DNA from: Escherichia phage EP02SG
Direction: 5' to 3' (one strand)
Length of the DNA: 64,000 bases
Sequence record: PQ301181
Part shown: positions 61,086 to 64,000 of the stretch, one piece after another
How positions within the stretch are numbered: position 1 is the stretch's first letter
How the letters are laid out: the number at the start of each line of letters is the position of its first letter
Notes under the pieces: model-generated
Told to the model about the DNA's origin: nothing
Databases searched by the model: none
The model's input: the letters and a program-made list of their open reading frames with translations, nothing else
Program-made: the position numbers and the translations under genes

Positions 61086-61634
61086 TTAACGAGCCCATTT
61101 GATAATTTCTGTAATCAAATAATTACGTTCGCTTGCATTAAATCCTATAACTTTGTTAGCACCGTCATGATTAAGTAATTGATACGTTTGGATTTTGTTA
61201 TGAATTGCAAACTCTTCAAAATATGAAATGACTGTATTAAAACCGAATGAAGACAAAGTAATAAGGTCGTCTTCAAAACTTTCAGTCATTTCGTTACGTG
61301 TTAAAATAATTGTGAACACATCATGGTTTTGGCAAAGACGAACATAATCCTGTTCATAAACATCAAGAACCGAGTCCGCATCTTGTCGAATACGTCCATA
61401 AACCCAGTTACTAATATATCCACGGTCTAACAGATAAATCTTAGTAGGGTCTAAATAATTCAACATCGTTTCGAAACAACCAACTTCATTTCGAGACTTA
61501 ACATCGAAACGTCCATCAACTGTTCGTTTAGGGAAATCAATCTTTACATATCTTTCACTAATTTCCATTATGTCATTAATGAAAGTTGTTTTACCAGCAT
61601 TATCCGGGCCATCTACTAAAATAATTTTAGCCAT
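61086..61634 (-). CDS. P-loop kinase-like protein (182 aa)
   Basis: N-terminal Walker A ILVDGPDNAGKTTF resembling the kinase domain of this phage's own Pnk ([15 protein letters not shown]); lies in the T4 beta-gt slot. Confidence 0.55.
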   Translation of the reverse strand: MAKIILVDGPDNAGKTTFINDIMEISERYVKIDFPKRTVDGRFDVKSRNEVGCFETMLNYLDPTKIYLLDRGYISNWVYGRIRQDADSVLDVYEQDYVRLCQNHDVFTIILTRNEMTESFEDDLITLSSFGFNTVISYFEEFAIHNKIQTYQLLNHDGANKVIGFNASERNYLITEIIKWAR

Positions 61635-61635
61635 T

Positions 61636-62535
61636 TTATTCCTCGATTACGACATCTTCATATTTAGGTATATTATACGGCGAAGAAATTAAAGCATTAA
61701 AGTAGATGAACTCGCCAAGACCTGGATGGAATACTTCTTCAGGATTTTCGAAATATTGAATCTTCGGACGTCCTTTAAGAATTTGATAGTACTCAGTTTT
61801 AGTTGGATTAAAAATTCGAATCAGCGCTTCTTCAGGATACTTATTTCTGTCGAAACTATTATTTGGATCAGTTATATAAAGCGGTTGACCTAATTGAATT
61901 GCGCATTCAACCACTTGTTCAAAACGATAGCATGGGTCACTAATTCGAAATGGATGAAAAATACCATCTAGATGAATAGGAGCCAAATCACCTACAAGAC
62001 GCTGCATGACGGAAGGACGTATAACTTTCTGTGTTACGATAATCTTATTACCATCTGCACCTGCGTTAACCAGCACTTCTTTTTGACGTTCATTCAACAC
62101 AGTAGTTTGAAGTGAACGATTAACAGACAACATGTCGGTTTTTAAGAATTCATCAATATAAAAACGTGGTTTATTAGGGTCTGCAGTGATATTGAAATTG
62201 AATTCTACGTCAAAAGCGCCATCATATCCAGTGATATCTGTGATTAGAAAATCACAATCATAATAAGCAATTAATGAATCAACCACAAATTCATTTTCAG
62301 ACCAGAAATATTTACGAGTGTTATACGCGTTATCTTTATACCATAATGGAACAAACTTAAATTCCGGAAAAAGACGTTCGCATTCTTTAATATCAGATGC
62401 ATTACGTGGATATGTAATCACATCACCTGGATTAGCACGGTGCAAATGAAGTTGGAAGTTGCCATCCTTAAGGATAGCATACTGACCAGTTTCATAAGAC
62501 CGCATACTCAAGATAGGTACACGGAAAATAGCCAT
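61636..62535 (-). CDS. hypothetical protein (299 aa), unassigned, in beta-gt slot
   Basis: ORF track; abuts kinase-like ORF and gp42-like ORF; no recognisable glycosyltransferase motifs. Confidence 0.5.
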   Translation of the reverse strand: MAIFRVPILSMRSYETGQYAILKDGNFQLHLHRANPGDVITYPRNASDIKECERLFPEFKFVPLWYKDNAYNTRKYFWSENEFVVDSLIAYYDCDFLITDITGYDGAFDVEFNFNITADPNKPRFYIDEFLKTDMLSVNRSLQTTVLNERQKEVLVNAGADGNKIIVTQKVIRPSVMQRLVGDLAPIHLDGIFHPFRISDPCYRFEQVVECAIQLGQPLYITDPNNSFDRNKYPEEALIRIFNPTKTEYYQILKGRPKIQYFENPEEVFHPGLGEFIYFNALISSPYNIPKYEDVVIEE

Positions 62536-63251
62536 TAGTCAAGGAATCCTTTAACATAATCAAAATCACGTTCAAACACATGGGCACTTACCATGGTATG
62601 AGTATAATCACCAACTTCTACACCACATTCATTAGCGATATAATGAAGTAATTTTCCTTGGAGATAAAAATCCAACTGCATAACAACAGCACAGTTCTGA
62701 GAACGCATATGACAGTGGGTATAAAGCTTACCATCACGAATATAATAAGTCACTGAGTCAGTACATGGATATTCAAGTGTTTCGTCCGAATCAAGCAAAG
62801 CCTGATCTGAACTTTCTAGAATTTGGAACACAACTCTTCGGGAGTTAGGCTTCTCTTTAAGTTCTTTTAGAAGAGCTGGTAATTGGGCCGCAATGCGAGG
62901 ACCATAGAAAGTGTTGAAGTTCGCCGGCAAAACATCTGATTTTGGTTTAGAAATAAATTTAGCGACATTAGGATATGCCTTAAACGCTTCTTCTGCGTTG
63001 GTACCACCAGAAATCATAAACTTCCAGAAGTCTTCGGCATATTCATAAGAGATGCGGTTAATACGTGGGTCGGTCATTTTGAATGATGATGGAGTGTCAA
63101 CAACTACTGTCATAGACCCAATTTCATTACAACGTCCAATACGAGAATCAGTTACGAATTCCGGGTTTTCTAAAATTTCACGATTGACTGCTTTAAATGC
63201 GGTTTGAAAATCTGCGGCTTTAATATATTTCATTGTGTTATGTTTTCCCAT
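62535..63251 (-). CDS. 42: thymidylate-synthase-fold pyrimidine hydroxymethylase (gp42/dCMP hydroxymethylase-like, divergent)
   Basis: 238 aa; catalytic core PCTDSVTYYIRDGK and SRR loop align with recalled T4 gp42 (MCTNTVQYLIRDKK; SRRG); rest of protein diverges; same position as T4 gene 42. Confidence 0.65.
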   Translation of the reverse strand: MGKHNTMKYIKAADFQTAFKAVNREILENPEFVTDSRIGRCNEIGSMTVVVDTPSSFKMTDPRINRISYEYAEDFWKFMISGGTNAEEAFKAYPNVAKFISKPKSDVLPANFNTFYGPRIAAQLPALLKELKEKPNSRRVVFQILESSDQALLDSDETLEYPCTDSVTYYIRDGKLYTHCHMRSQNCAVVMQLDFYLQGKLLHYIANECGVEVGDYTHTMVSAHVFERDFDYVKGFLD

Positions 63252-63371
63252 GTTTACCTCAATACAGTTATTATATACTCAATTCATAAAGCTTATTTGA
63301 ATTTCTTAGCGATGTTGATATAACGTAAAGCTTCAGCATCGATATTTCCAAGAACACTATGAAGAAATGCA

Positions 63372-63533
63372 TCAGCGTAGTATTCTAGTTGAACAGGTTT
63401 CTTTAATCACTTTAGCCGCTTTAGTTTCAAACAGGCCCATAAGGGCCTTTTTAAGAATTTGTTCGTTGCTGTTAATTTTAATAGTCAAAATCTCTTCGTT
63501 AAGTTGGTGGTTAAAAGTTTTTCTAGAAATCAT
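63372..63533 (-). CDS. small protein (53 aa), hand-translated
   Basis: Start ATG overlaps stop of upstream partial ORF in an ATGA arrangement; internal AGGCCC-ATAA-GGGCCT hairpin. Confidence 0.4.
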   Translation of the reverse strand: MISRKTFNHQLNEEILTIKINSNEQILKKALMGLFETKAAKVIKETCSTRILR

Positions 63534-64000
63534 TCTGGGTACCTCAAAGCGTCATCAGAGTTAGTTATATCAATAATAGATATAGAGTTTTCTGATAACC
63601 CATTTTTAGATAACTGACGTTTATAATATCTTTCACAATATGTACACGTCGTCCCACAGATTTCATTAGCACAATCGAAATCTGGATGTTTGAACCACCT
63701 TTTTTCTAAAAAGCCGTCTAACAAAGAGGTTTCAATATTTACCGTATGTGAAAACTCAGTCTCATTTTCAAGAGTGAAAATGGTCTCTAAAGGCTTCCAC
63801 AATTCCAACAAATTACCTTCAAACTTTTCAGAAGCGTAAGCTTCAAGAACTTTTAAAATGTAGTCGGTGCTACCTGTACGTCCTGAAACTTTAAATTGAG
63901 TGATACCAATATCATTATAAAGTTTCAAATCTTGAGGACGAACAAAACGAGTTCTCAACCAGTTAAATGGATCTGTATCACGAGCTTTAATACAGTGTTG
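63530..64000 (-). CDS. partial CDS (C-terminal at least 156 aa), Cys-cluster protein; 5' end beyond window
   Basis: Frame open to window edge; track 'start' is TTG; C-terminal C-x4-C-x3-C-x2-C cluster (DCANEICGTTCTYC). Confidence 0.55.
   Translation of the reverse strand, partial: QHCIKARDTDPFNWLRTRFVRPQDLKLYNDIGITQFKVSGRTGSTDYILKVLEAYASEKFEGNLLELWKPLETIFTLENETEFSHTVNIETSLLDGFLEKRWFKHPDFDCANEICGTTCTYCERYYKRQLSKNGLSENSISIIDITNSDDALRYPE

Follow-up and report, generated by a model that had tools for sequence, protein, structure and literature searches.

The stretch of DNA analysed here (the window) comprises 64,000 nucleotides of Escherichia phage EP02SG (sequence record PQ301181), and this work deals with the gene that runs off its end. 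On the minus strand, an open reading frame (ORF) cut by the window edge at position 64000 continues to a TGA at 63532-63530 and encodes 156 residues before the stop (63530..64000). Its translation is identical to the C-terminus (residues 236-391) of a protein of 391 amino acids (aa) from phage 308Ecol101PP, annotated as 'peptidase U32' in that complete genome. The DNA identity between 308Ecol101PP and the window region is 99.8%, and about 150 other genomes of Mosigvirus (RB69-like phages) are 90-99% identical to the same region. The remainder of the gene lies beyond the window edge, the full-length copy being that of 308Ecol101PP (locus L001, 7331-8506). The match identifies the cut-off gene as the orthologue of RB69 ORF050c (RB69p050), coding for a viral protein of the U32 family whose C-terminal 40% falls within the window. 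The ratio of nonsynonymous to synonymous polymorphism (pN/pS) is about 0.05 in this 3' end.

The full-length orthologue matches Pfam PF01136 (Peptidase_U32) with 42.4 bits against a gathering cut-off of 22.4, and the orthologue of Serratia phage LC53 does so with 44.5 bits; by itself the window fragment reaches 16.4 bits, under the cut-off. The protein matches the PHROG profile phrog_5757. In NCBIfam the sole match was UbiU, sub-threshold with 19 bits against a cut-off of 440, and a sequence search of the PDB returned nothing at E values up to 1. An AlphaFold2 (AF2) model of an orthologue 87% identical in sequence (pLDDT 93.1, pTM 0.92) retrieved with Foldseek, as its top PDB match, the U32 protein 5D88 (E 3.6e-7, TM 0.65 on target), the other matches being generic TIM barrels. 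This entry is Mk0906 of Methanopyrus kandleri, the sole solved U32 structure recovered; it resembles the phage protein in fold, but with 247 aa and 12% identity it consists of the barrel core only, lacks the region of the C-terminal cysteines and has no known function. Profile alignment to Escherichia coli UbiU, RlhA and TrhP places the invariant residues F271-K-V-S-G275-R276-T277-G278 (63872..63895, minus strand) at the counterpart of the U32 'KIEGR' strand motif, the phage 'FKVSGRTGS' aligning with 'LKIEGRTKS' of TrhP, 'FKIEGRYKD' of RlhA and 'VKIEGRQRS' of UbiU. Among the E. coli U32 proteins TrhP scores best with the phage profile (15 bits), RlhA being marginal (9.5 bits). Taking the profile matches together with the predicted structure, the protein is a member of the U32 family with a U32 barrel fold. 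A subfamily profile search recovered 1,703 representatives among 1.84 billion protein clusters, and the subfamily is thus a small, distinct branch.

The original prediction had described a partial ORF ending in a C-x4-C-x3-C-x2-C cluster, with its stop in an ATGA overlap with a 53-aa ORF, and all of these features were found in place. It had also held that the ORF is neither Imm nor DNA polymerase. This is borne out by 308Ecol101PP, where gp43 comes five genes further along and imm has its place elsewhere, near dmd, and the gene order of that genome likewise places the ORF in the same module as the uvsX-42 genes, as had been supposed. The contrary case, in which the ORF would turn out to be gp43 or another T4 core protein carrying a zinc ribbon, fails, since the completed ORF encodes a U32 protein. 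In 308Ecol101PP imm is annotated at the far, uvsX-side end of the locus (L001 1-100), past dmd and helicase gene 41. T4 has imm between genes 42 and 43; the corresponding Mosigvirus interval holds five modification genes.

Conserved cysteines of the U32 protein

The C-terminal cluster, D-C345-ANEI-C350-GTT-C354-TY-C357 (DCANEICGTTCTYC; 63635..63676, minus strand), lies in a region that no Pfam domain covers. Its four cysteines are kept in 100% of 121 homologues, down to about 46% identity and with a mean column identity of 49%, and also in 100% of 75 selected sequences. The motif C-x4-C-G-x2-C-x-[YFWH]-C is present in 14 of 14 homologues from bacterial or archaeal genome bins, and a relaxed four-cysteine C-terminal cluster occurs in 111 of 130 full-length distant representatives. 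Judged by this conservation, the cluster is not due to chance. Altogether, ten cysteines are conserved in the 121 homologues (about 46-100% identity), namely C163, C182, C197, C208, C214, C238 and the four of the cluster; nine are invariant and C182 is kept in 98%.

Characterised U32 members bind [4Fe-4S] clusters, and in UbiU the residues C169, C176, C193 and C232 are the proven ligands (PMC6747719). The canonical iron-sulphur (Fe-S) arrangement against which the phage protein was tested is C-x6-C-x15/16-C-x3/4(or 38)-C. In the profile alignment, C208-x5-C214 and C238 coincide with UbiU C169, C176 and C232. The codon of C238 is located at 63992..63994 (minus strand); this invariant residue, in the motif YPMQHC (YPTLC in UbiU), is the only canonical-type U32 cysteine within the window. 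As the canonical Fe-S cysteines sit upstream of the C-terminal cluster, the latter would be an additional, subfamily-specific site, probably a second metal site and most likely a [4Fe-4S] one. The cluster had been read beforehand as a metal-site signature, and the membership of the completed protein in a family whose characterised members carry [4Fe-4S] clusters (PMC6747719) agrees with this. That reading was incomplete in leaving out the upstream cysteines of the canonical type.

The modification cluster and the supply of prephenate

The genes of 308Ecol101PP follow each other in the order gp43 polymerase, arabinose-5-phosphate isomerase, nucleotidyltransferase-kinase, HAD phosphatase, U32, small ORF, thymidylate-synthase homologue, glycosyltransferase, P-loop kinase and uvsX. 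This is the arabinosyl-5-hydroxycytosine DNA-modification cluster described for RB69, DLP3 and HY126. Three of its members lie on the minus strand of the window beyond the small ORF: the thymidylate-synthase homologue, a synthase of 5-hydroxy-deoxycytidine monophosphate (5-hydroxy-dCMP) orthologous to RB69 gp48 and identical or near-identical in Mosigviruses (62535..63251); a glycosyltransferase, the putative first DNA arabinosyltransferase, orthologous to RB69 gp46:47 (61636..62535); and a P-loop nucleotide kinase of the same module, orthologous to RB69 gp45 (61086..61634). The latter two were placed from the ORF list and Table 1 of PMC13326640. The first had been called gp42-like in the original prediction; it is not a hydroxymethylase but a synthase dependent on O2 and flavin mononucleotide (FMN), enzymes of the gp48 type having FMN bound and drawing their oxygen from O2, as established by 18O2 labelling (PMC13326640). 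Hence, a phage that replaces all of its cytosine would be blocked without oxygen. The sole mention of RB69p050 in the same paper is a table entry, 'sugar or heterocycle reductase', and the discussion names tRNA hydroxylation pathways while remaining silent on the phage homologue of one of them (PMC13326640).

A second set of neighbours concerns prephenate, the product of chorismate mutase. In Serratia phage LC53 the gene after U32 overlaps the U32 stop and matches Pfam CM_2 with 44.6 bits (cut-off 27). The same succession of U32 and a CM_2 chorismate mutase was found in Winklervirus, Kanagawavirus, Klebsiella and Enterobacter phages and Shewanella phage Thanatos-2, with a four-base stop overlap where checked; in Thanatos-2 the cluster is rearranged and the pair is kept. 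Relatives of the LC53-type mutase are present in 56 phage records and in 13 of 15 T4-like IMG/VR loci, Mosigvirus and Marfavirus being the exceptions to the pairing, and no chorismate mutase was found elsewhere in the 64-kb window.

The association extends to a divergent set of 22 dereplicated viral loci that are not T4-like (contigs of up to 294 kb; U32 39-54% identical), whose flanks were surveyed over 6 kb. A chorismate mutase, a DAHP synthase or a fusion of both (DAHPS-CM) adjoins U32 in eight of them. Homologues of the RB69 gp46:47 glycosyltransferase, often directly upstream of U32, are present in 11, and the isomerase and nucleotidyltransferase-kinase genes also in 11; 19 of the 22 loci have one or more of glycosyltransferase, isomerase/nucleotidyltransferase-kinase or prephenate-supply genes, while a ThyA-type match occurs in a single locus and is weak. 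In other contigs U32 adjoins genes for dCMP deaminase, thymidylate kinase, UDG, dNK or NT5C.

The DAHPS-CM fusions that adjoin U32 belong to uncultured large phage contigs (L058 7076-8191, L049 4411-5433, L051 4324-5379, L052 4338-5393 and L073 4928-5956); the one in L058 matches Pfam DAHP_synth_1 with 112 bits and CM_2 with 38.7 bits. A stand-alone DAHP synthase follows U32 in L040 and L014. A phage-encoded entry into the shikimate pathway appears to be unusual.

The distribution of U32 over hosts was established by tblastn. U32 was located in 221 phage records, all with Enterobacterales or Shewanella as hosts. The ThyA-type synthase was located in 373 records, among them those of 57 Acinetobacter and 20 Rhizobium phages, and none of these 77 has U32. 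In Acinetobacter phage Konradin, which has the same cluster, the HAD gene abuts the ThyA gene, with neither U32 nor mutase. Most of the matches in genome bins belong to gut taxa that are strict anaerobes (Oscillospiraceae, Lachnospiraceae, Romboutsia, Phocaeicola and Tannerella).

A proposed O2-independent cytosine hydroxylase

Taking into account that U32 (i) stands next to the 5-hydroxy-dCMP synthase, (ii) is coupled to prephenate-supply genes, and (iii) is missing from phages of obligate aerobes, we propose that it is a prephenate-dependent, O2-independent hydroxylase of cytosine C5, acting most likely at the dCMP level, a reading to which we assign a probability of roughly 0.55. The characterised U32 proteins are all tied to O2-independent hydroxylation of an aromatic carbon (PMC5727448, PMC6599085, PMC10990095), and two of them act at pyrimidine C5, RlhA giving 5-hydroxycytidine (ho5C) and TrhP 5-hydroxyuridine (ho5U) (PMC5727448, PMC6599085). 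Prephenate is required for RlhA in rRNA, for TrhP in tRNA and for UbiU/V (PMC5727448, PMC6599085, PMC10990095); in the latter its role as oxygen donor was demonstrated, and the mutase domain of PheA alone restores activity (PMC10990095).

In the proposed model, U32 would supply 5-hydroxy-deoxycytidylate for arabinosyl-5-hydroxycytosine DNA when oxygen is absent, as the anaerobic partner of the adjacent flavin- and O2-dependent ThyA-like synthase. The dual-route logic would be that of TrhP/TrhO, of UbiUV/UbiIHF and of the two ribonucleotide reductases of T4. In this Mosigvirus, which has no mutase of its own, prephenate would be obtained from PheA/TyrA of the host. Following the chemistry proposed for UbiU/V, the Fe-S clusters would take two electrons from the ring, and decarboxylation of prephenate would subsequently deliver hydroxide, with phenylpyruvate left behind. 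The C-terminal cluster would serve as a second, in-cis [4Fe-4S] electron relay, replacing the partner subunit or ferredoxin of the cellular U32 enzymes. What the sequences show is the U32 family and fold, the ten conserved cysteines, the place in the modification cluster, the recurrent coupling to chorismate mutase and DAHP synthase genes and the host distribution; the substrate, the use of prephenate, the chemistry and the relay we infer. In the uncultured contigs U32 stands where a ThyA-type enzyme would be. Overall, the simplest reading of the protein, which we consider somewhat better than even, is that it is the anaerobic enzyme forming 5-hydroxycytosine (5hoC).

A close parallel is RlhA (YdcP), the E. 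coli 5-hydroxycytidine-2501 synthase of 23S rRNA, which shares with the proposed phage enzyme the U32 domain, hydroxylation at cytosine C5, the dependence on prephenate and Fe-S and the independence of O2 (PMC5727448). The second cysteine of its C-x6-C pair and its KIEGR motif align with the phage protein. RlhA differs in its 653 aa, with extra C-terminal domains, in its single rRNA nucleotide target and in having the canonical C-x6-C-x15-C-x3-C without the C-terminal C-x4-C-x3-C-x2-C. TrhP (YegQ), the prephenate-using U32 pyrimidine C5 hydroxylase that makes ho5U34 in tRNA, has a non-homologous O2-dependent alternative, TrhO, with the same product (PMC6599085), and this pairing is the logic that we propose for U32 and gp48; unlike the phage protein, TrhP acts on tRNA, is encoded by a cellular stand-alone gene without coupling to a mutase, and is devoid of the C-terminal cysteine cluster. 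UbiU-UbiV, the anaerobic ubiquinone hydroxylases, are Fe-S U32 proteins with prephenate as oxygen donor, and UbiU has the three cysteines aligned above. They form a heterodimer with one cluster per subunit and act, together with the accessory UbiT, on the benzenoid ring of a lipid, whereas in the phage protein one chain holds all ten conserved cysteines and two clusters are possible. The gp48-type synthase, including those of HY126 and DLP3 (gp80), would share product and pathway with U32, but it is of unrelated fold, flavin-dependent and O2-using, and is present in phages of strict aerobes that have no U32. Reuse by a phage of a prephenate-consuming RNA-modification enzyme for DNA hypermodification is likewise seen in the carboxymethylcytosine pathway (CmoA/CmoX) of phage S-B43 (PMC12783734); there, however, prephenate is converted to carboxy-S-adenosylmethionine, with neither a U32 protein nor a hydroxylation.

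Several observations weigh against our proposal. Only three of the four canonical Fe-S cysteines align, a counterpart of UbiU C193 being absent between C214 and C238 of the phage protein, although C163, C182 and C197 could act as substitutes for the missing ligand. No U32 protein has yet been shown to hydroxylate in vitro (PMC10990095), and the substrates of RlhA and TrhP are RNA polymers, not mononucleotides. Since gp48 and the kinase suffice for 5hoC in E. coli DNA under aerobic conditions (PMC13326640), any need for U32 is conditional at most. The chorismate mutase is lost in this Mosigvirus, and Marfavirus is without both small genes. By co-occurrence, U32 is linked to the genes of sugar activation no less tightly than to the base pathway, and the guess of the authors who listed it was a reductase (PMC13326640). 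In the uncultured contigs, a ThyA-type enzyme could lie outside the 6-kb flanks. Dhakaviruses (e.g. Bp7) infect E. coli and yet have no U32, and the contrast between aerobes and anaerobes draws on only a few lineages and is therefore confounded by phage phylogeny.

A prephenate-dependent hydroxylase with another target, be it RNA of phage or host, cytosine in polymerised DNA, or a second position or base (e.g. dUMP to 5-hydroxy-dUMP in uncultured phages), seems unlikely. T4-like phages do carry tRNA genes, the only known pyrimidine-directed U32 enzymes act on RNA polymers, and in several uncultured contigs dCMP deaminase is encoded directly upstream of U32, which would fit a dUMP substrate there. 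However, U32 is absent from the hydroxymethylcytosine T4-likes, 221 of 221 tblastn matches fall in records of phages with the 5hoC cluster, and each examined locus is a DNA-modification module, with U32 beside a DNA glycosyltransferase homologue or nucleotide-metabolism genes. Moreover, RlhA and TrhP have additional C-terminal domains, and Pfam shows no second domain in the phage U32. The sugar branch would offer the protein a different role, that of a reductase or tailoring enzyme on arabinose-5-phosphate, UDP-arabinose or the attached glycan. Its place between the HAD phosphatase and the base-modifying genes, its contiguity in divergent viral contigs with homologues of the SIS isomerase and the nucleotidyltransferase-kinase, its published table label and the wording 'putative enzyme involved in UDP-arabinose biosynthesis' in a BASEL phage record speak for such a role, which we nevertheless regard as quite unlikely: Acinetobacter phages make arabinosylated 5hoC with the same cluster and no U32, the conversion of arabinofuranose-5-phosphate (Araf5P) to UDP-arabinofuranose is assigned to AfhE and AfhF alone, and the recurrent coupling to mutase or DAHP synthase would be left unexplained. 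We know of no U32 protein that acts on a sugar.

The C-terminal cluster itself admits another interpretation, since C350-GTT-C354-T-Y-C357 fits the C-x3-C-x-aromatic-C signature of a site-differentiated [4Fe-4S] cluster of the radical S-adenosylmethionine (SAM) type, with the chemistry of a SAM-derived radical or, in a milder variant, structural zinc only. The Y/F/W/H position is kept across homologues, the AF2 model puts the last three cysteines in a loop running into a helix, and Radical SAM/SPASM genes adjoin U32 in some contigs. We judge this very unlikely, as there is no PF04055 match at E values up to 1, when a true Radical_SAM/SPASM neighbour gave 85.7 bits in the same type of search, and the motif is positioned in the C-terminal tail, 35-47 residues from the C-terminus, and not after the first barrel strand. 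Furthermore, the fourth invariant cysteine, five residues upstream, would occupy the open iron site, and the first two intervals drift in spacing in distant relatives, which is unusual for such sites. A collagenase-like U32 peptidase, for instance a processing protease, is hardly credible. The historic family name and the annotation of many phage records would favour it, but the family has since been reinterpreted as Fe-S hydroxylases (PMC6747719, PMC10990095), the context in every lineage is nucleotide and sugar metabolism, and neither a protease motif nor a protease substrate is apparent.

In the accessible literature we found no paper joining U32 with arabinosyl and phage, nor chorismate mutase with bacteriophage DNA modification; an earlier assignment is possible in the most recent papers. 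The gene is already known and annotated, and its function is likely an unreported variant, in that literature, of a known kind of enzyme. Tentatively, and at somewhat less than even odds, it would be the first U32 hydroxylase known from a virus and the first of its family to act on a DNA precursor, a self-contained, two-cluster, prephenate-dependent and O2-free source of 5hoC, and the sole base hydroxylase in many uncultured phages. The 5-hydroxycytosine pathway described in 2025-2026 needs O2, yet the phages that use it leave no cytosine unreplaced and prey on enterobacteria in the anoxic gut. A second route without O2, if it exists, would explain their replication there, their hosts being gut facultative anaerobes. 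It would also allow a forecast of the therapeutic phages that are active without oxygen, Mosigvirus being among them and Dhakavirus perhaps not. In the uncultured phages, several of which are binned with genomes of anaerobes, U32 would work with a chorismate mutase or DAHP synthase of the phage itself and with a glycosyltransferase for DNA; were it their sole hydroxylase, glycosylated 5-hydroxypyrimidine DNA would be widespread in anoxic viromes. If the proposal holds, the operon would offer a tractable system for reconstituting U32 and prephenate chemistry in vitro, with a substrate that is small and soluble, access to phage genetics and a chorismate mutase that comes with the enzyme. Some 1,700 representatives of the family, at present annotated as 'peptidase', would then serve as markers of hypermodified DNA.

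The small gene downstream and further loci

The U32 stop TGA overlaps the ATG of the next ORF in the sequence ATGA (63530..63533, minus strand), an arrangement of translational coupling. This junction, TACCCAGAATGA, is kept across phage genera, and in other genera the identical four-base overlap joins U32 to chorismate mutase or to a 79-aa gene. The 53-aa ORF of the window (63372..63533, minus strand), which the original prediction had regarded as a gene in the position of imm, is no substitute for Imm. Alignment with six other Mosigviruses, together with the profile match, indicates that it is not a native product but a frameshifted allele of the 79-aa gene (phrog_8601), which occupies the slot between RB69 ORF050c and gp48. 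The truncation is caused by one extra base in a homopolymer run (63398..63400), which reads TTT on the plus strand and TT in the sampled Mosigviruses with an intact 79-aa ORF; the 53-aa ORF consequently contains 45 native codons and eight out-of-frame ones. The out-of-frame 3' remainder of the ancestral gene (63293..63397, minus strand) resembles an intergenic spacer, and its frame can still be read as PVQLEYYADAFLHSVLGNIDAEALRYINIAKKFK to the old stop at 63293-63295. The window ORF covers positions 1-50 of the 79 in the phrog_8601 profile, with 97.8 bits, and is thus a truncated member, as compared with 168.9 bits over positions 1-79 for the intact Bas46 allele.

The 79-aa ORF is intact in the Mosigviruses SHSML-52-1, mar007P3, APCEc01 and Bas46. 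The gene carries different lesions elsewhere: G2285 has a nonsense codon, AV117 a deletion of 39 nt and HY126 a 40-aa form, and several further isolates give tblastn matches in two pieces. The pN/pS of the intact alleles is 0.22, against 0.05-0.06 in the flanking genes; the 79-aa gene is real and weakly constrained. The segment with the small ORF and the spacer (63230-63560) is markedly more variable among Mosigviruses than its flanks, with 101 of 153 records in the 90-95% identity band, as compared with 112 of 154 records in the 95-99% band for the 801-base region that includes the flanks.

The shared slot, the ATGA coupling and the similar size raised the idea that the small gene is a degenerate chorismate mutase, which was rejected. 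Neither the 53-aa nor the 79-aa form matched anything in Pfam (CM_2 included) at E values up to 10, hhalign of the small gene against phage chorismate mutases gave a probability of 0.1%, and the weak tblastn matches of mutases to the spacer (E 0.06-0.3) are due to chance. The two are, moreover, separate adjacent genes in Yersinia phages and Pectobacterium phage PM2, where the order is U32, 79-aa gene, chorismate mutase and ThyA homologue.

A search for FNR-type sites (TTGAT-N4-ATCAA) gave only matches with two mismatches, all of them intragenic, and anaerobic regulation of that type was dropped. In LC53 (L005 4854-5492), Serratia phage X20/CHI14 and Yersinia phage phiR1-RT, the genes for HAD phosphatase and U32 are separated by the insertion of a homing-endonuclease-like gene (putative endonuclease / segB). 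L003 (12160-14360) and L075 (10142-12351) each contain a radical SAM/SPASM gene and, after it, another U32-like paralogue. The latter is very divergent, scores 21.7 bits, just below the Pfam cut-off, and is without the C-terminal cysteine motif; the pair lies about 3-4 kb downstream of the main U32, amid NT5C, dNK, nicotinamide mononucleotide (NMN)-transporter and nucleoside deoxyribosyltransferase genes. Upstream of U32 in L083 (2987-5992), an isolate scaffold of Phocaeicola faecalis, are encoded a GP88-family protein, a guanylate-kinase/methyltransferase fusion and an unannotated 267-aa ORF. This trio also precedes U32 in L003 and L004 and represents a different, unexplained module. The 82-aa ORF found upstream of U32 in some jumbo contigs has no Pfam match. 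The direct downstream neighbour of U32 resembles a TET-associated glycosyltransferase in L044 (7083-7973; 22.6 bits, below the cut-off) and, by a weak match, a GT47 exostosin-like glycosyltransferase in L043 (7093-8160), which hints at a glycosylated hydroxylated base. Finally, the chorismate mutase of LC53 (L005 6660-7004, 114 aa) has an N-terminal extension of 40 residues. The likeness of its start, MRRINHTMNELV, to the N-terminus of phrog_8601 proteins, which reads MKINHKLNEELV in Yersinia phages, suggests that a deletion fused the two neighbouring genes.

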